Shown here: positions 7,641-17,575 of the stretch, one piece after another
Layout of the letters: every line of letters starts with the position of its first letter
How positions within the stretch are numbered: the stretch's first letter is position 1
Assembly: GCA_964346935.1 (NCBI GenBank)
Contig: CAYFXP010000190.1
Coordinates: forward strand, 1-44,645
Direction: 5' to 3'
DNA from: an uncultured Syntrophobacterales bacterium
GTDB lineage: Bacteria > Desulfobacterota > BSN033 > WVXP01 > G020346125
Length of the DNA stretch: 44,645 nucleotides
Program-made: the position numbers and the translations under genes
Notes under the pieces: model-generated
What the model saw: the letters and a program-made list of their open reading frames with translations, nothing else
What the model was told of the DNA's origin: nothing
Database searches by the model: none

Positions 7641-8087
7641 TTACGGACCCTTGGCCAGGACGATCTTACCCTGGGCCACCACGGTTTCGTTTACCTTTGC
7701 CTCCACCTTCACCATGGCCAAGGACTCGAAGACGCGAAGGACTTCTGCATGAAGCCGTAGCTGATCACCCGGCGAGACGGCCGATCGAAAGCTCATGTCC
7801 TCGATCTTGGCCAGTATGGGCAACCGAAAGCCCCCTGCCTCGTCGGGGTTCTCCTCACCAGAGGCGAAGGCCAGCCCACCTGTTTGGGCCAAGGCCTCGG
7901 CAATGAGCACACCGGGCATGACCGGAATACCGGGGAAATGGCCCCGAAAGAAGGGCTCATCAATAGTCACATTCTTTATGGCCGTGGCCGCCTTGCCAGG
8001 CTCGAGGTGAACCAGCCGATCGATCATCAAGAAGGGATACCGATGGGGTAGATGCCTCATGATTTCATCGATGTTCATGGCTGGCAT
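7641..8087 (-). CDS. fabZ: 3-hydroxyacyl-ACP dehydratase FabZ
   Basis: [34 protein letters not shown] (catalytic His and Glu contexts). Start taken at ATG 8087 (MPAMNIDEI) after GAGAAAGGA. The 221-aa track ORF adds a non-homologous extension that overlaps the upstream gene. Confidence 0.9.
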
Positions 8088-8095
8088 TCCTTTCT

Positions 8096-8572
8096 CTAAA
8101 AAACGGAAATAATTTGAAGGACCCCGGTGGTTAATCCGAAGACGATGAGTATCCCCAGGACGGATCCGGTCATCAGCAGCAACGTCCCGTGCAGGCGCCG
8201 CTTCCCGATGAGAAAGCAAAAAACCGATCCCGAATGGATGCCGAAGCCCTTGATGGGGAGGGCGGAGATGAGGACTATCCCCAAGTTCCCCAGTGAGGTA
8301 ATCCATCGGATTAGGCGTTTCTCCCGCATACGCTCCTGCATTCGTTCCACCTGTTTCCGAGCCCAGCGAAAGGGAAATTTCTCGGAAAACCGCTCAAGGA
8401 GATACCCGTAAATGGGTATCTGCACGTAATCATAACCCAGCGCCAGGGGAATGTAGTAGTGTAGGGGCAGATGATTGATAATGGCGTATACCATGGACAC
8501 CGTGCGCCCGCAGGCGAAATGCAGGGCGGTAAAGATCAATAGGTGATTAGTAGGGGAAAAGAGGTCTTCCAC
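8096..8572 (-). CDS. Hypothetical polytopic membrane protein
   Basis: About four hydrophobic helices. The GTG start overlaps the stop of the upstream KS-like gene by 1 nt (TAGTG). It faintly resembles small multidrug-export-like (COG2426-type) proteins, from memory only. Confidence 0.6.
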   Translation of the reverse strand: MEDLFSPTNHLLIFTALHFACGRTVSMVYAIINHLPLHYYIPLALGYDYVQIPIYGYLLERFSEKFPFRWARKQVERMQERMREKRLIRWITSLGNLGIVLISALPIKGFGIHSGSVFCFLIGKRRLHGTLLLMTGSVLGILIVFGLTTGVLQIISVF

Positions 8573-9780
8573 TATTTACCCATGAGGATGGAGGCGAAGG
8601 TTCCATCGGGTGAGAGGGCGTTGTGAAGGATGGTCTTAACCTCACTATCGACGGAGCTATTGACCACGTAACTGAGGTCACACCGGGGATCGGGGGTTTT
8701 ATAGTGAATGGTTGGGGGTATGAATCCCTCCTCAAAAATGATGGCATTTGCCGCCATTCTTATCCCACCCGAGGCGATGGACTCCCCAACCATGGACTTG
8801 ATGGAGCTTATGGGAAGGGCGCCATAATCCGATGGGAACGCCCCTTTGATCGCCTTTGCCTCTATCTCGTCCACCTTTTTCGAAGAATTACCCACCCCCG
8901 AAATATAGTCAACCTTCCTCTCCTCGTCCGTGCCTTCTATGGCTAGTCGAATGCTGCGCTCCATATCCCTCCATGGGGAAGCGGCATCGAACCCGCCCAC
9001 GAAGGAATAGCCCAAGATCCGCCCATAGGGCTCGACGCCCCTGGAAAGGGCACTTCCCTCCCTCTCCAAGACGAGGATGGCTGCCCCTTCCCCGAGAACG
9101 ATTCCATTTCGGTTCAGGTCATAAGGGCAGCTCATCTCCCCATCCCCACGATCATATGACAGGAGATTAATGGCGGAAAAGCCCCTGAAGAGGATTTCGC
9201 TCAGCTCATCCACGCCTCCCGTCAATATGGCCTTCGCCCTCCCCTCTGCCAGCAGATCGCAGGCCATGATTATGGCGGCCTCGGCCGTGCAATAGGATTG
9301 GACCACCGTTGAATTTACACCCCTGATCCCGAGCTCTATGGAGACATTCCCGGTGGCCGCGTTGGGAACGGTATTGGGGAAGAGGATGGGATTCAATTCC
9401 AGAAATCCCCCCAGTACTTGTTCCCTATGGAAGGCCTCCGAATTGGCAAGCCCGCAGAAACCGGAACCCAGGATGATCCCAACCTCACAGCTATTGGAGT
9501 CGGTAATGGTCAATTTGGCATCCCCCAAGGCCAACTTCGACGCCGCAATGGCCAGCTGACTCGCCCGGTCCAGTTTCCTGATCTTGGAGACTGGGATGAA
9601 TTCCCGGGCATTGAACCCCTTGACCATACCCCCCTTCTTCGCCTTAAAGAGACCGGTGTCGAATTCGGAGATCTCGGAAATGCCATCCGCGCCGTCCCGC
9701 AGACCCCGGCAGAACTGGGTCTTTCCAATTCCGATGGAGCTTACAACGCCGATGCCCGTTATGACGATTCCCTCATTCAT
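8572..9780 (-). CDS. Beta-ketoacyl synthase-like protein lacking both catalytic His residues (CLF-like partner)
   Basis: Thiolase-fold KS throughout. Cys is retained (VVQSYCTAEAAI), but the HGTGT position reads YISGVGNSS and the KSMxGH position reads SIKSMVGES. Confidence 0.85.
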   Translation of the reverse strand: MNEGIVITGIGVVSSIGIGKTQFCRGLRDGADGISEISEFDTGLFKAKKGGMVKGFNAREFIPVSKIRKLDRASQLAIAASKLALGDAKLTITDSNSCEVGIILGSGFCGLANSEAFHREQVLGGFLELNPILFPNTVPNAATGNVSIELGIRGVNSTVVQSYCTAEAAIIMACDLLAEGRAKAILTGGVDELSEILFRGFSAINLLSYDRGDGEMSCPYDLNRNGIVLGEGAAILVLEREGSALSRGVEPYGRILGYSFVGGFDAASPWRDMERSIRLAIEGTDEERKVDYISGVGNSSKKVDEIEAKAIKGAFPSDYGALPISSIKSMVGESIASGGIRMAANAIIFEEGFIPPTIHYKTPDPRCDLSYVVNSSVDSEVKTILHNALSPDGTFASILMGK

Positions 9781-10987
9781 ACTTTTTCAGCACGATGGTG
9801 GTGCAATTTCCCCCGAAGGCAAAGGAATTGGACAAGACGGTTCCCACCCCTTGCCTTCTCGATCGATGGGGAACGTAGTCCAAGTCGCACGCCTCATCCC
9901 TTTCGCCATAGGTAGCCGTGGGTGGGACAAACCCATGGATTATCGAAAGGACCGAGGCCACAGCTTCAATGGCTCCTGCCGATCCCAGGCAGTGCCCCAC
10001 CATGGACTTGATGGAGCTGACGGGAACGGAATAGGCCCTCTCCCCCAACGCGTCCTTGATGGCCATTGTCTCGACTTTGTCGTTGAGCGGCGTCCCCGTT
10101 CCGTGGGCGTTGATGTAGTCCACCTCACCGCGGGCAATGTTGGCCGCGTTCATGGCCTCCCCCATCGTCCTGGATTGTTCCCTGCCGCTTGCCTCCGGCG
10201 CGGTCATATGGTAGGCCTCTCCAACGGTGGAATAGCCCAGGAATTCCGCGTAGATAGTTGCCCCCCTCGCTCTAGCACGCTTCAATTCCTCCAGAACCAA
10301 AATCGCCGCCCCCTCTCCCAGGGTCATTCCCCTTCTTCTCGCATCAAAGGGCTTGCAGGGAGTCGGATCCACCACTCGGAGGGAATTGAAGCCCCCGAAG
10401 GTTAGTTCGCTCATGGCATCGCTTCCGCCACAGATCATGATCTCCACATGTCCCCTCTTGATAAGGTCTGCGCCGTATCCGATGGATGTGGCGGAGGAAC
10501 TGCAGGCCGTCGTGATAGTGGCCTTCGGTCCACAGAGGCAAAACCGTTGTGATACAGCATCAGTGGAATAACTGGGGAGGAAGGGAAGAATCAGCGAGGG
10601 ACGAGGTTTTCCCCTCCCCTTGAGAAGGAGGTCACGATGGTACTGCTCAGCCGAAAGCATGCCGCCTGCGCCCGCACCGAGACATACTCCGATTTCCCGG
10701 TGGGGCTTCCCGTTCATATCGATTCCGGCATCTTTGACGGCCTCCATCGAGGCGATGAGGGCAAACTGGTCTGTCCGGGAGAGCCTTCTCAATTCGGTAG
10801 GGCCGAAATAATCCAGGGGGTCGTAATCCCTGATCTGGGCCGCAATCTTGGAGGGGTACTTGGAGGCGTCGAACAGGGTCACCTCGCCGATGCCCACCCT
10901 GCCCTCCTCGAGGGAACGGTGGAACTGGGAGATGTTCTTCCCGATGGCGGTAATCGCCCCCAACCCGGTGATCACAACCCTTTTCAT
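9773..10987 (-). CDS. Beta-ketoacyl-ACP synthase II-type condensing enzyme (intact Cys-His-His)
   Basis: TTACSSSATSIG (Cys), YINAHGTGTPLND (His), SIKSMVGHCLGSAG (His). Start taken at ATG 10987 (MKRVVITGLG), 13 nt after the fabG stop and preceded by GAGGGGA. The track start at 11017 is also possible. Confidence 0.9.
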   Translation of the reverse strand: MKRVVITGLGAITAIGKNISQFHRSLEEGRVGIGEVTLFDASKYPSKIAAQIRDYDPLDYFGPTELRRLSRTDQFALIASMEAVKDAGIDMNGKPHREIGVCLGAGAGGMLSAEQYHRDLLLKGRGKPRPSLILPFLPSYSTDAVSQRFCLCGPKATITTACSSSATSIGYGADLIKRGHVEIMICGGSDAMSELTFGGFNSLRVVDPTPCKPFDARRRGMTLGEGAAILVLEELKRARARGATIYAEFLGYSTVGEAYHMTAPEASGREQSRTMGEAMNAANIARGEVDYINAHGTGTPLNDKVETMAIKDALGERAYSVPVSSIKSMVGHCLGSAGAIEAVASVLSIIHGFVPPTATYGERDEACDLDYVPHRSRRQGVGTVLSNSFAFGGNCTTIVLKKYE

Positions 10988-11000
10988 TCCCCTCGGCTGA

Positions 11001-11741
11001 TTAGACAATTCCCCCATCCACGACTACCGTCTGGCCGGTGATGTAGTCGGATCCCTCCGAGGCCAGAAACAGCACGGCATGGGCGACCTCCTCGGGTCGA
11101 CCGATGCGCCCCAAGGCGGTTTGCCTGATGATGGCCTCGACCTTCTCCTTTGGGACCCTCGCCAACCAGTCCGTTTCGATAACCCCCGGCGCCACCGCAT
11201 TGACCTGGATGTTGAATTGACCCAACTCTCTGGCCAGGGATTTGGTGAAGCTTATCAAGCCTCCTTTAGAAGCGGCATAGTTGACCTGACCAGCCGTGCC
11301 CAAGATGCCGCTGACCGATGCGATATTGATGATCTTGCCCTTCCGCTGGGGAATCATCTTTCGCAGGGCGGCGCGACAGCAATAGAAGGTGCTGGTCAGA
11401 TTCGCCTTCAGGACGCGCTCCCAATCCTCATCGGACATCAACATGAGAAGGTTATCCCTCATCATGCCCACGTTGTTGACGAGGATGTCGATCCTGCCAT
11501 AGCGGCCCGCGACATCCTCCATCATAGCGCTGACTTGGTGAAAATCAGTCACATCGGCTTGGTATGGATCGAGCGTGCCCCCGAGGGATTCGGCCTCCTC
11601 GGATAGCTCCTGGGCCGCCCGTTCGTCGGAGGCATAATTGGCGATAACGAAAGCTCCCATCTCGCAGAAAGCTAAACCAATGGCCTTCCCTATTCCCTTC
11701 GAGCCACCGGTTACTATGGCTATTCGGCCATCGAACTCCAT
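11001..11741 (-). CDS. fabG: 3-oxoacyl-ACP reductase (SDR family)
   Basis: [11 protein letters not shown] cofactor motif, the NNVG segment and the YAASKGG catalytic motif. Length 246 aa. Confidence 0.9.
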
Positions 11742-11745
11742 AACA

Positions 11746-13146
11746 TTACTCCCCGGCGAGAGGCCTCACCCTTGGCCTCTTCATTCTCGCGACCAAGTTC
11801 CAAAGAGGGCCCCTGATGTGAAACCGGCGGATTTGGTCCATCAATTTCTGGGAAATGTTAATCTCTAATCCCGGCACAATCCACCCCTTCCTCTCCAAGG
11901 CCTTTTGGGAGACCCAAGACAGGATTTCATCCCCCAATTGGGGGGAGACGTAAAAATGGGGATACATGAGGTTGGTGTCGCGACCGATGATCCCCTCCGA
12001 CAGGGATATCCTCTCCAGCTCCGTTCCAGGGTATATCCGAATTCCCACCATGACGATGACTGCCGTTGGCTTGACTTGGTCCATCAAGGAGGCGGTCTCC
12101 CCCAAGGTCTTCTCGTCCTCCCCGGGCCCACCTAAGAGGAGGTAGTGGGCAAAGGGAACCTCGACCATCCTGCATATCTCAGAGGCCCGAGAAATATCCC
12201 CCAGGGAGAAGGATTTCCCAAGCCTCCTCAACATGGCGGGAGACCCTGAATCGGTGCCGAACTCGACTCCCGTACAGCCCGCCTCTTTCATGGTTTCGAT
12301 CAGCTCCTCATCGACATACCCCGGATTGACAAAGGCGCTCCATTTCAACCCGATGCCCTGATCCGCCATGGATCGGCAGAGCCCAAGGGCATAATCCCGT
12401 GGAAAGTTAAAGATATCATCCACGAAGTAGACGTAATCGACATCGTGGAGTTCCTCCAGAGCCCGGAGCTCCTGGACGACCTCCTCCGGGGGCCTCGTGC
12501 GCACGGAGGACCCCTCCAGCAGCGGGTAGGTGCAGTAGATGCACCCGAAGGGGCATCCCCTTTTGGTCTGAATGTTCCCCATCCCTCCATGGCGCAGATA
12601 TCGTGCGTTGTCCAAGAGGTCCCGATACGGAAACCCAATGGATTCGACTCCATCGATGGCCGGAACCGATTCGGGAAGATCCTCCCGTACCATCAGTCCG
12701 GGGATCCCCTTCACCGAGATTCGCTTTTCCAAGCGCCGAACAAGGGAGAGCATGGGATTCTCACCCTCTCCCACAATCCCAAAATCGACATTCAGCACCT
12801 CCAAGAGCTCCCTTGGGGCCAACGAGAACCCAGAGCCCCCAATGATCACCTTGGCCCCCGAATATTTCCTGCAGAGCGCGATCACCTCCTCCGCTTCTGG
12901 AACATATGAGAGGGCAGTTGGATAGGTCAAATTGTCCAGGTTTCTCAACGAAAGTCCGATCAGGTCAGGCCTCCACCGCGATATCTGATCTTTTAGCTCC
13001 TCCTCCACGTCGTCACTGAAACAGAGGTCCACGATTCTCAACTGATGCCCTTCCTCCTTGAGCCCGGAAGCGATATAGGCCAATCCCAAGGGGAAGACCG
13101 GAAAGGGCATTCTCTCCCTGTTTACCGATAGCAAGAGAATCTTCAT
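11746..13146 (-). CDS. B12-binding-domain radical SAM protein (lipid-cluster type)
   Basis: N-terminal MKILLLSVN...[12 protein letters not shown]...DLIGLSLRN...VIIGGSGFS, and radical SAM motif [18 protein letters not shown] overlap with the next gene at 13143-13146. Confidence 0.9.
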
Positions 13147-14468
13147 GATGGATCCGCGTCAAACCGGCGATACCTAAGCCTGTTGACGATCTCCATTTGA
13201 GCCTTCCTCAGGGCGAAATTGCTCATCAAGAAGTAGAGGAAGTGGTTCCTGTTGCCCCCCAGGAGCCTTCCAAAGATAGAGCGAGGGGAACAGCAGTACT
13301 TCTGAGCCCATAGGTATCCCTGCTGGAGTTCTTCCGGGCTCATCAGCTTTGGCTTGAATACCACATGGCTCATATCGTAGTGAGGCCAATGGTTATCGAA
13401 GATTCGCCCCTCCTCCTCGAGCCTCCTCCTCAGAGGCGTCCCGGGAAAGGGCGTGAGCACGAAGAAGTTAGGGAGCTCAATATGGGTCTCATGAACGAAA
13501 TCGACGGTCCTCCTAAACACGTCCTTGTCATCGTGATCGAATCCAAAAATAAAGGAACCCTGAATCCCTATCCCGTGGTCCTGGATTTGTTTGATGAGGT
13601 CAGCCAGCTCTCGGGTGTCCACAAAGGTCTTTCTCGCCCCATCCAAGTTCTCCTGATTGAGGGATTCGAACCCGATAAAGAGGGAGATGCACCCGCTTTC
13701 CCTGGCCAGGGCGAGCAGCTCCGGATTGCGGGCGATTTTGAGAGTACAAAATCCCATCCACTTGGGCTCATATTTCTTGAGGATGCGGAAGAGTTCGGCC
13801 GCGAATTTCGGCTGGGCAATGACGTTATCGTCGGTCAGCATGAGATATTCTCCCCCTCTCCGGATGAGGGAGGAGAGTTCGGAATCGATGTGGGAGATAG
13901 ACCTGGTCCGATATCGCATCCCGTTGATCATGGGGACGGAGCAAAACTCGCACCGATTGGGGCAACCCCTCGTCGTCTCAATAGCATTGAAGAAGCGGCT
14001 ATACCTGGAGCCCAGCAATTCCCTCCTCGGGAGGGGCATTTTTCTCAAATCGAAATAGTTTTCGGTCCGATAAAATGGCTTTAGGCAGCCTGCTTCATAG
14101 TCGGAGATGAGCTCCTGGAAGATTCCCTCCGCCTCGCCAATCAGGACGGCATCTGCATGGGCTTTTGCCTCTTGAGGCAAAAAACTCGCATGTACCCCCC
14201 CGATGACCACCGTTTTCCCCCTCGTGCGAAATTCATCCGCTAGGAAGTGAGTCCGATCCGCAACACACGTCAAAGAGGTGAGTCCCACCAAATCCACATC
14301 CGCTTTCAGATCCACCTTCTCGATGGCTTCGTTTACAATGGTAATATCCCAATCCTTGGGAAAGAGGGAGGCCAATACCGTGAGACCGAGCATGGGGAAG
14401 GGGCGGCACGTATCCGTGGACACCCTCTTTCCCCTTTCCCTCGGAAAGATGAGCAGAGCTCGCTTCAC
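13143..14468 (-). CDS. B12-binding-domain radical SAM protein (paralogue of 558..1904)
   Basis: TRGCPNRCEFCSVP. GTG start preceded by AAGGAGGT. GTGA overlap with the upstream gene. The C-terminal YLWAQKYCCSPRS is shared with the 558..1904 protein (FLWTKKYCCAPRS). Confidence 0.9.
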   Translation of the reverse strand: MKRALLIFPRERGKRVSTDTCRPFPMLGLTVLASLFPKDWDITIVNEAIEKVDLKADVDLVGLTSLTCVADRTHFLADEFRTRGKTVVIGGVHASFLPQEAKAHADAVLIGEAEGIFQELISDYEAGCLKPFYRTENYFDLRKMPLPRRELLGSRYSRFFNAIETTRGCPNRCEFCSVPMINGMRYRTRSISHIDSELSSLIRRGGEYLMLTDDNVIAQPKFAAELFRILKKYEPKWMGFCTLKIARNPELLALARESGCISLFIGFESLNQENLDGARKTFVDTRELADLIKQIQDHGIGIQGSFIFGFDHDDKDVFRRTVDFVHETHIELPNFFVLTPFPGTPLRRRLEEEGRIFDNHWPHYDMSHVVFKPKLMSPEELQQGYLWAQKYCCSPRSIFGRLLGGNRNHFLYFLMSNFALRKAQMEIVNRLRYRRFDADPS

Positions 14469-15868
14469 GTTACCTCCTTCAGAAATTCATCATACTCCTG
14501 AAAGTTCGGCTGTCTCCACTGCCTCCTGGTAGCGTTCTCCCATACGTACCTCATGATGAGCCGATACGCCATCCGCTTAAAGGGATTGCGGCTCAGCAGG
14601 GGCCCTAGCAATATCCGGGGCTGAGTATAGTACTTCTTGAGGTACGTCTTCTGGAGAGATTCCACTTCTTCTGCTGAAAGGCAATGAGTCGGCATAACAG
14701 GATGCATGAAATCATATTTACCGAGGTCAAACTCAACGATTCTCCCCGCCTTCATGGCCTCCTCATAGTAAGGAGTTCCCGGTAGTGGAGTTGTCATGGT
14801 CAATATGAGAAAATCGCTCTGCTTCTTCACGAACTGGAAGATCTCTCGTAATGTCTCCTTGCTATCGAGCCAATCCACGAACATCACGTTGGCCATAACC
14901 ATGATCCCGTTTTCCCTCAGGATATTGATGGCCTCTTGGGCCATATCCCGGTCTTGCCTCTTGTCATATCGGTCCAGCACGGAGGAGGTCACGCTCTCGA
15001 CCCCCAACATCACCTCGTAGAGCCCCAGCCGCTTGAACTCGGACATGAGATCCCGATCCCTGATGATATCCCTCACCCGCGACTGAAACCAGAAGTGAAC
15101 CCCCAGGCCCGATTTCCCCAGTTCCTCCAAGAATTCCTCCACCCGTTTCCGACTCCAATTGAAGCTATTCTCGTTGAAGACGAAGAGCGTCTTTCCGTAC
15201 CGTCCGTTCAGATAAACCATTTCCTCAACAACCCTCCTGGCACTCCTCGCCCGCCAATACCCTTGCCAGAAGGCCGTCTCGGAACAGTATGCACAACAAT
15301 CACCACAGCCGCGGCTCGTCGAAATCCCAAAAGCCTCCCTTCCCATCCCATGCCAGTAGTAGGCATCGTTCTCCACGTCGATGAGGTGGTATGCGGGCAG
15401 GGGAAGGTCATCCAAATCCTGGATGAGGGGCCTCATTCGGTTCATCACCACCTCCCCGTCATTCGAAAAGGCCAAGCCCCTGATCCCTTTCACCCCCTCC
15501 CAATCACCCTCGGCGACCTGGGAGACGAATTCAGCCATTGATCCCTCGCCCTCCCCCAACAGGACGTAGTCGAGCTCCGGCACATCTTTAAGGATGGACC
15601 TGGCTAAAAGGGTGAAATGGCTCCCGCCCGCCACGATCACGGATCGTCGCGAGAGCCGTTTGGCCAGGGCAATGGTCTGAAAGGCCTCGGGCGAAAGGCA
15701 GGTCGCACTCGCCGTGACCCCGATGATATCGGGCTGGGCCCCCGAAATCCTCCTCGCCAAATCGGACCAGGGCCTATCGAAGGTTGTGCAGTCGAGGATT
15801 TGGCAGGAAAATCCCGCCTTTTCCAGGTATGCCCCCAGGCTCAAAAGGCCGAAGGAGGGGGTCCACAT
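14465..15868 (-). CDS. B12-binding-domain radical SAM protein (N-terminus probably extends to ~15931)
   Basis: SRGCGDCCAYCSE. Coordinates use the first ATG. The in-frame upstream codons (KGKPTIFLVDPPHRLFPGLR) still align with the N-terminus of the 18512..19879 paralogue, yet contain no ATG, GTG or TTG. Confidence 0.85.
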   Translation of the reverse strand: MWTPSFGLLSLGAYLEKAGFSCQILDCTTFDRPWSDLARRISGAQPDIIGVTASATCLSPEAFQTIALAKRLSRRSVIVAGGSHFTLLARSILKDVPELDYVLLGEGEGSMAEFVSQVAEGDWEGVKGIRGLAFSNDGEVVMNRMRPLIQDLDDLPLPAYHLIDVENDAYYWHGMGREAFGISTSRGCGDCCAYCSETAFWQGYWRARSARRVVEEMVYLNGRYGKTLFVFNENSFNWSRKRVEEFLEELGKSGLGVHFWFQSRVRDIIRDRDLMSEFKRLGLYEVMLGVESVTSSVLDRYDKRQDRDMAQEAINILRENGIMVMANVMFVDWLDSKETLREIFQFVKKQSDFLILTMTTPLPGTPYYEEAMKAGRIVEFDLGKYDFMHPVMPTHCLSAEEVESLQKTYLKKYYTQPRILLGPLLSRNPFKRMAYRLIMRYVWENATRRQWRQPNFQEYDEFLKEVT

Positions 15869-15927: not shown

Positions 15928-16356
15928 TTATCGTTCCACCTCCAAGTATTCCATCATCCTGCCGATCCTCTTCTGGATCGGCTCGGGAATTCGATACAAG
16001 AGGGTCCCCTTGGAATCAGTCAGCACGTGAACCGTACGCCCCGTGGCCAGGACCCTGTTTGTCTCCGCGTGCAGCACCTCATAGGTGAAGATGAGGTTGG
16101 CCAATTCCGATGGTTGCATCCCCGTCCGGATGAGCAATTCATCGTTGGGCCTTGCGGGTTCCTTGAATTGACAGTGGACCTCGACCACCGGGGCGAGAAA
16201 GCCGGCATCCTTGAGGGTCAGCGGATCCAGTTCAAATTGAAGGGCGAGCTCATTGCGGCTCACCTCGAACCAATTAATGTAGTGGCCATGCCAGACCACT
16301 TCATAGAGATCAACCTCGGTAAAACGGACCTTAAGGCGCGTCTCGTGAAATCTCAT
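15928..16356 (-). CDS. Hotdog-fold acyl thioesterase (YbgC/4HBT-like)
   Basis: VRFTEVDLYEVVWHGHYINWFEVSRNE matches the catalytic-Asp N-terminal signature of YbgC-type thioesterases. Length 142 aa. Confidence 0.8.
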   Translation of the reverse strand: MRFHETRLKVRFTEVDLYEVVWHGHYINWFEVSRNELALQFELDPLTLKDAGFLAPVVEVHCQFKEPARPNDELLIRTGMQPSELANLIFTYEVLHAETNRVLATGRTVHVLTDSKGTLLYRIPEPIQKRIGRMMEYLEVER

Positions 16357-17287
16357 TCGGTCCTAACTTCCCCATGGAGCTGGAATCTCCCGTTGCCGTG
16401 GCTTTAACTCCCCTGTCGATCCATCGGATCAATTTACAGAGGGTGGCATCGTATCCCACCTCGATAAACCAGGCCACTCCTCGACGGAGGAGCTCCCTGA
16501 CACATCCCTCCCAATAAACTGGCCTGCATATCTCATCGGCCAAGAAAGGCTTGATGTCCCCCTTTTCCAGAAACGATAGCGTCATGTGATTGAGTATTCG
16601 GAACTTGGGTTCCCTGATATCGATGTGGTCCACCAGCTCCTGGATTTCAGCCCGAACGGGTTCCATAAGGTCACAGTGAAGAGGGGCGGAAAACGTCAGC
16701 CGGTGGGCGGCAATGGCGCCCAAATCGAGGGCCAAGGGGATGAGCTTGTCAATCCCTCCATTCAATCCGGAAAGGACGAAATTTCTCGATCCGTTGTAGT
16801 TGGCGATGGAGATTCGATACCCATCCAGCCGATCCCGAATGCCCTCGATTTGATCCATCTCCAAGCCGAGGACGAGGCACATGGATCCCCCTATCTCCCT
16901 TGCCCGTCCTTCTATGAGGAGGCCGATATCCCTCGTGAGGAGGAGCCCTTCTTGAAAATCGATGCTTTCCGCGGCCACCAAGGCCGCATAGATTCCCATG
17001 CTGTGCTCAGCGATGACATGGGGGAATATCCCCTCCCGCTGTAGACGATAATAATGGATGAGGCTGATGAGGTAGCTCGCCAGCTGAAGCTTGACGTTGA
17101 AATATGGCTCCCACTCCAGCTCCTGAATGGAGAAATTGAGGACGTCAAACCCACTGACCCGCTGGGTTTCCTCGTAAATCTCCTTGGCTAACCCCTCCCC
17201 GTAAATGGAATGATACGCGGGCAGGCGAGGACGTTCCTGGAGCTGCCCAGGAAAGCAGAAGCAGATTTTCTCCCCGCCTCGCTTCAT
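16331..17287 (-). CDS. FabD-like acyltransferase (malonyl-CoA:ACP transacylase fold)
   Basis: FCFPGQ (compare FPGQGSQ), the nucleophile elbow AEHSMGIYAAL (compare GHSLGEY), and FSAPLHCDLMEP (compare the PSHCALMKP His motif). Confidence 0.8.
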   Translation of the reverse strand: MKRGGEKICFCFPGQLQERPRLPAYHSIYGEGLAKEIYEETQRVSGFDVLNFSIQELEWEPYFNVKLQLASYLISLIHYYRLQREGIFPHVIAEHSMGIYAALVAAESIDFQEGLLLTRDIGLLIEGRAREIGGSMCLVLGLEMDQIEGIRDRLDGYRISIANYNGSRNFVLSGLNGGIDKLIPLALDLGAIAAHRLTFSAPLHCDLMEPVRAEIQELVDHIDIREPKFRILNHMTLSFLEKGDIKPFLADEICRPVYWEGCVRELLRRGVAWFIEVGYDATLCKLIRWIDRGVKATATGDSSSMGKLGPNEISRDAP

Positions 17288-17302: not shown

Positions 17303-17575
17303 TCAGCCATTATCGCGGTTTTCGACAACGTACTGGGCAATTGTTCCCACGGATTGAAAGACCTTCTGCCCCACTTCAGCATCGGGAATGATCACCCCAT
17401 ACTCCTTTTCCAGCCCCAGGACTAGCTCCAGGGCATCGATGGAATCCAAACCCAACCCCTCACCAAAAAGAGGATCGTCGGTCCCGATATCCTCGGGCGT
17501 GACCTCCTCCAGTTTAAGCCGCTCGATGATGAGCCTCTTGAGCTGAAGGATGAGCTCTTCCGTTACCGTGGTCAT
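17303..17575 (-). CDS. Acyl carrier protein
   Basis: 90 aa and acidic, with the phosphopantetheine site LGLDSIDALELVLGLE. Confidence 0.9.
   Translation of the reverse strand: MTTVTEELILQLKRLIIERLKLEEVTPEDIGTDDPLFGEGLGLDSIDALELVLGLEKEYGVIIPDAEVGQKVFQSVGTIAQYVVENRDNG

Follow-up and report, generated by a model that had tools for sequence, protein, structure and literature searches.

Introduction

The locus described here raises the question of what a protein that resembles a ketosynthase (KS) does when it is encoded directly beside an intact one. The window, by which we mean the whole stretch of DNA that was analysed (44,645 nucleotides; positions 1 to 44,645 of contig CAYFXP010000190.1, GenBank assembly GCA_964346935.1, from an uncultured Syntrophobacterales bacterium), carries two adjacent open reading frames (ORFs) on the minus strand, one for a KS and, downstream of it, one for a KS-like protein that we call the partner. 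A preliminary description had taken the partner for a KS of unusual degeneracy, which keeps the catalytic Cys while both catalytic His residues are lost, and had suggested that acylation might make it a holding or priming site.

Our analysis leads us to consider it quite probable that the two genes encode the halves of a fatty-acid-type ketosynthase/chain-length-factor-like heterodimer. This heterodimer most likely serves a dedicated lipid cluster that resembles a fatty acid synthase (FAS) system and contains B12-binding radical S-adenosylmethionine (B12-rSAM) enzymes ('ladderane-like', TIGR04072), in what is a Desulfobacterota metagenome-assembled genome (MAG). Physical heterodimerisation, a chain-length role, self-priming and the product are what we infer from the data below.

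Results

The ketosynthase and the junction with its partner

The adjacent pair and its 8-nt overlap are as the preliminary description had them, the overlap reading ATGAATGA; the strand, which it did not give, is the minus strand. As far as can be read from the DNA, an overlap of this kind is a mark of translational coupling. The full triad of a β-ketoacyl-acyl carrier protein synthase II (KAS II), which had been read from TTACSSS, NAHGTGT and KSMVGH in the KS, is likewise present, the motifs TTACSSS, NAHGTGT and SIKSMVGH providing Cys162, His295, Lys327 and His332 (numbered from ATG 10987). The longest KS ORF reaches an ATG at 11017, inside the 3' end of fabG, however we place the start at 10987 because a GAGG ribosome-binding site precedes that ATG and because of the N-termini of homologues (MKRVVITG).

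The KS passes the NCBIfam KAS II subfamily model NF005589 (426.7 versus 387 bits), falls below the cut-off of the fabF equivalog TIGR03150 (438.5 versus 493.75 bits) and has a dN/dS of 0.12. The partner scores below every NCBIfam KS cut-off, reaching 286 bits with TIGR03150. Housekeeping FabF (KAS II) was ruled out as an identity for the pair, since both TIGR03150 scores are under 493.75 bits. A separate canonical housekeeping FabF of the same genome sits on contig C563.

The partner has a degenerate active site

The partner is 33% identical to the neighbouring KS over its full length (BLASTP) and carries the motifs QSYCTAE, YISGVGNSS and KSMVGES at the three catalytic segments. Five alignments, all ungapped across the segment, agree that the nucleophile column is occupied by Tyr163, which leaves Cys164 at +1. 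They comprise BLASTP against the neighbouring KS (ungapped for more than 80 residues around the site), phmmer against Bacillus subtilis FabF (4ls5/4ls6) and against amxFabFmut (9s5h_C), MAFFT of 121 and of 134 sequences, and profile-profile hhalign of the partner family against twelve active KSs. The spacing from the Gly before the strand to the helix A-x-D-L is equal in KS and partner, which leaves no room for a register shift. The same register pairs Tyr163 with a Val of amxFabFmut from Brocadia fulgida, and this Val was named by its crystallographers as the replacement of the catalytic Cys (bioRxiv 10.64898/2026.05.19.726425).

The catalytic Cys attributed to the partner in the preliminary description therefore reflects a one-residue slip in register. 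The loss of both catalytic His residues is real, proper alignment giving Val296 and Glu333 at these positions and no overlooked His. Judged by alignment, then, the partner has lost the entire triad (Cys to Tyr163, His to Val296 and His to Glu333), as has a classical chain-length factor (CLF), and only the Lys is retained. Furthermore, the Phe-Gly-Gly of the gate/oxyanion loop is gone, NALSPDG replacing NSFAFGG in the hhalign comparison.

Among 120 homologues of at least 59% identity the segment follows the motif T-[LV]-V-Q-S-x-C-T-A-E-A-A, in which all positions are invariant or nearly so except x, the nucleophile column (F in 89, Y in 26, S in 2, H in 2 and L in 1). Cys164 is present in 120 of 120, but since the whole motif is invariant this conservation carries no special signal. 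That the nucleophile column is the only freely varying position of the motif is what would be expected of a dead site. Active KSs have Ser, Ala or Thr at +1 of the nucleophile, and a Cys there would fit as one more small residue. As the Cys lies beside the catalytic position and not at it, the window pair is ordinary for its kind, and the unusual degeneracy proposed earlier falls away.

One member of the dead-partner clade, from an Omnitrophota single-cell genome (L032:9983-11209), does have a Cys in the true nucleophile column (STGCAS). It has Cys and Glu at the two His positions, and it thus displays the pattern that had been claimed for the window partner.

Fold, tunnel residues and selection

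The partner is predicted to be an intact, full-length KAS II fold. The AlphaFold2 model (pLDDT 93.9, pTM 0.94) was built from a diverse 66-sequence alignment (A3) and replaced a poor model (pLDDT 60.6) from a shallow family alignment (A1). The best PDB matches of the model are KAS II enzymes, the top match being B. subtilis FabF with a TM score of 0.95 and 35-36% identity.

Phe108 of the partner (GSGFCGL) occupies the position of the I108F substitution in B. subtilis FabF, which blocks the acyl pocket of that enzyme (4ls6). Together with Tyr163, Phe108 would thus probably plug the pocket of the partner itself. The motif FPNTV (Phe134 to Val138), in a helix-loop-helix element of the dimer interface, is identical in 9s5h_C and the window partner and is invariant across the partner family. 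Phe134 and Val138 match Phe135 and Val139 of amxFabFmut, on the assumption of a one-residue offset between the numbering of the paper and the PDB chain index. [quoted passage not shown]

The partner gene is under purifying selection, with dN/dS values of 0.17 and 0.15 against orthologues of 89% and 71% identity.

Relatives and phylogeny

Matches to the partner in the protein database number in the thousands. The best 120 are 59-94% identical, and the named sources among these 120 are Deltaproteobacteria, Syntrophaceae and Thermodesulfobacteriota. A genome scan found partner loci in Syntrophorhabdus, Syntrophaceae and Thermodesulfobacteriota at 56-61% identity, together with many KS and dead-KS pairs in Omnitrophota, Acidobacteriota, Nitrospirota and others.

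In a careful tree of 64 sequences (IQ-TREE), a branch with support 100/99 sets apart all those dead paralogues in which the Lys is retained and Glu replaces the second His. This clade has 28 members, including the window partner and 9s5h_C (amxFabFmut), and a quick tree gives it a support of 100. Within it, beta1 (97/89) unites the window partner family, the Geobacteraceae homologue, a second type from contig C7 and an Acidobacteriota type, and beta2 (100/99) comprises 9s5h_C and Omnitrophota proteins. The KSs that accompany them form two clades, each supported at 100/100, which mirror the beta split: the window KS is in alpha1 and 9s5h_B (amxFabF2) in alpha2. Streptomyces KS-alpha and CLF sequences branch separately.

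The second type stems from the same genome as the window. Contig C7 (L086) carries at 9806-13969 another KS and dead-KS pair, whose KS has ATVCSS and H-K-H and whose partner has Glu in the nucleophile column with A-K-E. A phytoene-desaturase-like flavin amine oxidase gene (PF01593) follows, which recalls the content of the anammox Cluster I. In a sister family of genomes, the dead KS is followed downstream by a LolA-like gene and then, at 4 kb, by a pair of the C7 type.

Co-occurrence and gene order

Among 41 related genomes, two congeners and most members of the sister family carry an orthologue of the partner (at least 57% identity). The KS orthologue was present in all six partner-carrying genomes that were checked, and it was absent from all nine checked genomes that lack the partner. 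In five of the six it is 64-66% identical and unlinked from the partner, on another contig or 50 kb away, and in the sixth (G005) it lies directly beside the partner. In one genome the KS is cut off at a contig end. Hence, in each of the 15 informative related genomes, KS and partner either both occur or are both missing, which, given the kinship of these genomes, is suggestive and not a statistical result.

Close relatives, L004 and a Geobacteraceae MAG (L073) with the same cluster likewise have the KS followed by the KS-like gene. More conserved than this adjacency is a string of three genes, namely dead KS, PF06695 membrane protein and FabZ/ApeI-like dehydratase, which is invariant in every related locus examined; the PF06695 gene there abuts or slightly overlaps the dead KS. 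In three loci of the sister family a gene for a 409-residue acyl-CoA dehydrogenase-like protein takes the place of the KS immediately upstream of the dead KS (L081:8779-10008, L082:8779-10008 and L083:455-1684). It overlaps the dead KS through the same ATGAATGA junction, with the same terminal Tyr-Glu-stop. The window genome has no orthologue of this dehydrogenase, the best match being 33% identical.

The orthologous KS of the sister family keeps its place at the end of the rSAM/ACP/FabG block, at another site in the genome. Thus in an uncultured bacterium (L051:464-11194) the KS closes a block comprising, in this order, genes for rSAM, LpxL, acyl carrier protein (ACP), FabD, 4HBT, three rSAM, FabG and KS proteins. 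Genes for isocitrate dehydrogenase and 2-oxoacid:ferredoxin oxidoreductase come after it. Because the block ends at the KS, the cluster is divided into two loci in that lineage.

Layout of the cluster

The coordinates of the two genes, their aligned residues and their neighbours are collected in Table 1. The GTG start of the PF06695 gene has one base in common with the stop of the KS-like gene (TAGTG). The longest ORF of the dehydratase gene (7641-8306) overlaps the PF06695 gene, but its homologues are only 141-146 residues long, so that its true start is probably near 8078. The first of the three B12-rSAM genes passes TIGR04072, 'lipid biosynthesis B12-binding/radical SAM protein', with 393 bits against a cut-off of 360. 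The cluster further contains an LpxL-like acyltransferase, a glycosyltransferase, a thioesterase and a split PlsA/Ger-like module, and it has four B12-rSAM genes in total. There is no FabH in the cluster and no enoyl reductase of its own; the missing enoyl reductase does not by itself establish the polyene-like product considered in the preliminary description.

At the upstream end of the gene train, before polysaccharide deacetylase and family 2 glycosyltransferase (GT2) genes, there is an ATP-grasp protein (PF15632/PF02655; 26302-27567, minus strand). It may be a marker of the cluster boundary or a hint of head-group modification.

Table 1. Positions in the window of the ketosynthase gene pair, its aligned residues and genes of the surrounding cluster
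Feature	Position	Strand	Remarks
Cluster-specific ACP	17303-17575	-	Likely carrier for the KS pair
FabD-like acyltransferase	16331-17287	-	Likely loader for the KS pair
Three B12-binding radical SAM genes	11746..15868	-	Cluster context; between thioesterase and fabG
FabG-type ketoreductase	11001..11741	-	Directly upstream of KS
Active ketosynthase, putative alpha subunit (P0002)	9773..10987	-	404 aa from ATG 10987; Pfam PF00109 and PF02801
KS Cys162 codon (nucleophile, TTACSSS)	10502..10504	-	
KS His295 codon (NAHGTGT)	10103..10105	-	
KS Lys327 codon	10007-10009	-	
KS His332 codon (KSMVGH)	9992..9994	-	
Overlap of the two genes, 8 nt	9773..9780	-	ATGAATGA; KS stop TGA overlaps KS-like ATG
Dead KS paralogue, putative beta/chain-length-factor-like subunit (P0001)	8572..9780	-	402 aa; Pfam PF00109 and PF02801
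Partner Phe108 codon (GSGFCGL)	9457..9459	-	Position of B. subtilis FabF I108F (4ls6)
Partner FPNTV motif (Phe134 to Val138)	9367..9381	-	Helix-loop-helix dimer-interface element; matches amxFabFmut Phe135/Val139
Partner Tyr163-Cys164 codons	9289..9294	-	Tyr163 in nucleophile column, Cys164 at +1
Partner Val296 codon	8893..8895	-	First catalytic His position
Partner Lys328 codon	8797-8799	-	Retained
Partner Glu333 codon	8782..8784	-	Second catalytic His position
Small membrane protein, PF06695 ('small multidrug export')	8096..8572	-	
FabZ/ApeI-like dehydratase	7641..8078	-	Start near 8078 approximate

Discussion

A putative heterodimer for a dedicated lipid pathway

The proposal of a KS-alpha/KS-beta-type heterodimer that belongs to a specialised lipid pathway, and not to housekeeping FAS, was already part of the preliminary description. 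It is supported well, if indirectly, by the clade that the partner forms with amxFabFmut, the co-occurrence of the two genes, purifying selection on the partner, the tunnel residues and the separate FabF of the genome. We propose that the KS, with its intact Cys-His-His-Lys site, would be the condensing subunit and that the dead subunit would stabilise it, by analogy with amxFabF2/amxFabFmut. In the anammox system these two proteins are active only when co-expressed as a heterodimer, which decarboxylates malonyl-ACP and forms acetoacetyl-ACP (bioRxiv 10.64898/2026.05.19.726425). The helix-loop-helix of the dead subunit (FPNTV, with Phe134 and Val138) would line the far wall of the KS acyl tunnel and so bias the chain length. 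The pair would work with the ACP, the FabD-like loader, FabG and FabZ of the cluster, and because the cluster is without FabH it may prime itself by decarboxylation of malonyl-ACP. In later steps the B12-rSAM enzymes would modify the acyl chain and the LpxL-like acyltransferase would transfer it.

Several observations weigh against this proposal. In the sister family there is no linkage between the dead KS and the KS, and the translational coupling of the dead KS is to an acyl-CoA dehydrogenase, so that adjacency of the two genes is not universal. The gene order of the window, with the KS first, is the reverse of that in the anammox cluster. Charge asymmetry at the interface is weak and inconsistent (about -1 for the KS-like element and 0 to +3 for the KS), whereas charge complementarity accounts for heterodimerisation in the anammox pair (bioRxiv 10.64898/2026.05.19.726425). 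Finally, the tree leaves unsettled whether alpha1 and alpha2 are sisters.

The coupling to an acyl-CoA dehydrogenase speaks for a reading that makes the dead paralogue an independent module and not chiefly a partner of the adjacent KS. It might, for instance, be a homodimeric scaffold that binds acyl-ACP for an acyl-ACP dehydrogenase or similar enzyme, acting with the PF06695 protein and FabZ. Besides the sister family, in which proteins of about 60% identity have the dehydrogenase as the ATGAATGA-overlapping gene in place of a KS, this reading would account for L081, where no KS lies within 10 kb, and for the string of KS-like gene, PF06695 protein and FabZ as the truly invariant unit; the amxFabFmut of S. 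brodae, moreover, crystallises as a homodimer (bioRxiv 10.64898/2026.05.19.726425). However, an orthologous KS was found elsewhere in five of five of those genomes tested, genomes without one gene are also without the other, the alpha and beta trees are mirrored, and the interface and tunnel residues are conserved. We therefore think an independent module improbable. The same coupling keeps alive a minority reading of the VQS[FY]C-TAE dead KSs as a general, portable subunit for acyl-ACP docking that is used with varied catalytic partners, in which case Cys164 would possibly be a functional thiol and not a packing residue; this, too, seems to us an unlikely outcome.

More doubtful still is a beta subunit with a usable nucleophilic Cys that is acylated as a holding or priming site while being incapable of decarboxylation or condensation. 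It would explain why Cys164 is found in every one of the 120 family members and why this Cys recurs in a Geobacteraceae homologue and in some Omnitrophota homologues, and in the AlphaFold2 model DSSP starts a helix at residue 165, which would put Cys164 just before it. This role is hard to reconcile with the ungapped register that sets Cys164 at +1 and Tyr163 opposite the Val of amxFabFmut, with a motif invariant throughout except at x, with a +1 position at which Cys would fit as do the small Ser, Ala or Thr of active KSs, with a nucleophile column that is Phe or Tyr in nearly all of the family, or with the change of the gate/oxyanion loop from NSFxFGG to NALSPDG. The acylated subunit of the preliminary description is accordingly not borne out. 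We attach the least credence, and very little of it, to the KS-like gene being a functionless duplicate in decay or a stand-alone active KAS with non-canonical residues. The absent triad and the scores below all curated KS cut-offs are what one would expect of either, but the dN/dS of 0.15-0.17, more than 100 full-length homologues at 59% identity or above with many invariant columns, and the confidently predicted intact fold argue against them. For an active KAS, established enzymology adds that Claisen condensation by the known mechanism is impossible once the Cys, the two His residues and the oxyanion loop are all missing.

The heterodimer that we favour will as such be no surprise to a specialist. 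What the analysis offers is the correction of a tempting misreading, for a Cys that adjoins the nucleophile position is not the nucleophile. It also places the anammox KS/dead-KS heterodimer in a much wider and older alpha/beta lineage, found in Desulfobacterota, Geobacteraceae, Acidobacteriota and Omnitrophota, in each case within a FAS-like lipid cluster that has yet to be characterised. These points matter for the 'ladderane' calls made by genome-mining tools and for chain-length control in specialised bacterial lipid pathways.

Comparison with known systems

The KS-alpha/CLF pairs of type II polyketide synthases (PKS), such as those for actinorhodin and ishigamide (Iga11/Iga12), resemble the window pair in that the active KS comes first, a dead paralogue adjoins it and the CLF shapes the acyl tunnel. 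Classical CLFs differ in having Gln at the Cys position and D-K-R elsewhere (VS[DE]QAG in the Streptomyces loci) and in forming a separate clade. A type II PKS chain-length factor (KS-beta) was ruled out for the partner, which has Tyr163 and not Gln, the Streptomyces CLFs (QA/DKR) standing apart in the tree.

The aryl polyene proteins ApeO and ApeC likewise form a KS/CLF heterodimer in a FAS-like cluster with an LpxL-like acyltransferase, a glycosyltransferase, a thioesterase, a ketoreductase and ApeI/ApeP-like dehydratases (PMC8358021). ApeC is a truncated partner that has a single thiolase half and is roughly half as large as a KS (PMC8358021). The window partner is not of this type, having 402 residues, a double thiolase fold and both the PF00109 and the PF02801 halves.

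Two degenerate FabB/F paralogues, Kuste2805 and NP_951518 of Geobacter sulfurreducens, were tabulated but never characterised (Rattray et al. 2009, Table 2, PMC2649909). Kuste2805 has Phe163, Asn300, Lys328 and Glu333, the pattern of the window partner family, and NP_951518 has Phe163 (PMC2649909). The Geobacteraceae MAG L073 has the same cluster, with the KS followed by a KS-like gene (VQRFCS). Residue pattern and synteny thus suggest that Kuste2805 and NP_951518 are orthologous to the window partner. A literature search for a characterised product of such a cluster in Geobacter or Desulfobacterota found none beyond Rattray 2009.

The biochemically characterised counterpart is amxFabFhet, the amxFabF2/amxFabFmut heterodimer of the anammox 'Cluster I' (KustE3605/3606, Brocadia fulgida; PDB 9s5h/9s5i; Granatino et al., bioRxiv 10.64898/2026.05.19.726425), for which the concept of a KS/dead-KS heterodimer was shown in that preprint of May 2026. 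The two systems are not the same. The nucleophile column is Tyr here (Phe in most relatives) and Val or Thr in the anammox proteins, and the first His position is Val or Ala here and Asn there. The partner matches 9s5h_C with 222 bits, no higher than its match to ordinary FabF (236 bits), and the window KS belongs to alpha1, amxFabF2 to alpha2. The window cluster, in a Desulfobacterota MAG, has four B12-rSAM genes, an LpxL-like acyltransferase and a split PlsA/Ger-like module, and ladderanes are not expected from it. In both systems, nevertheless, a full-length FabF-like KS is accompanied by a dead paralogue, itself of full length, with the Lys conserved and Glu in place of the second His, and among solved folds that of B. 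subtilis FabF comes nearest to the dead subunit. Both are encoded in a FAS-like cluster that includes a dedicated ACP, a FabZ and a B12-rSAM enzyme. The dead subunits share a clade (100/99) and have identical FPNTV tunnel residues, and by these comparisons the window pair is a sister lineage of the characterised anammox heterodimer.

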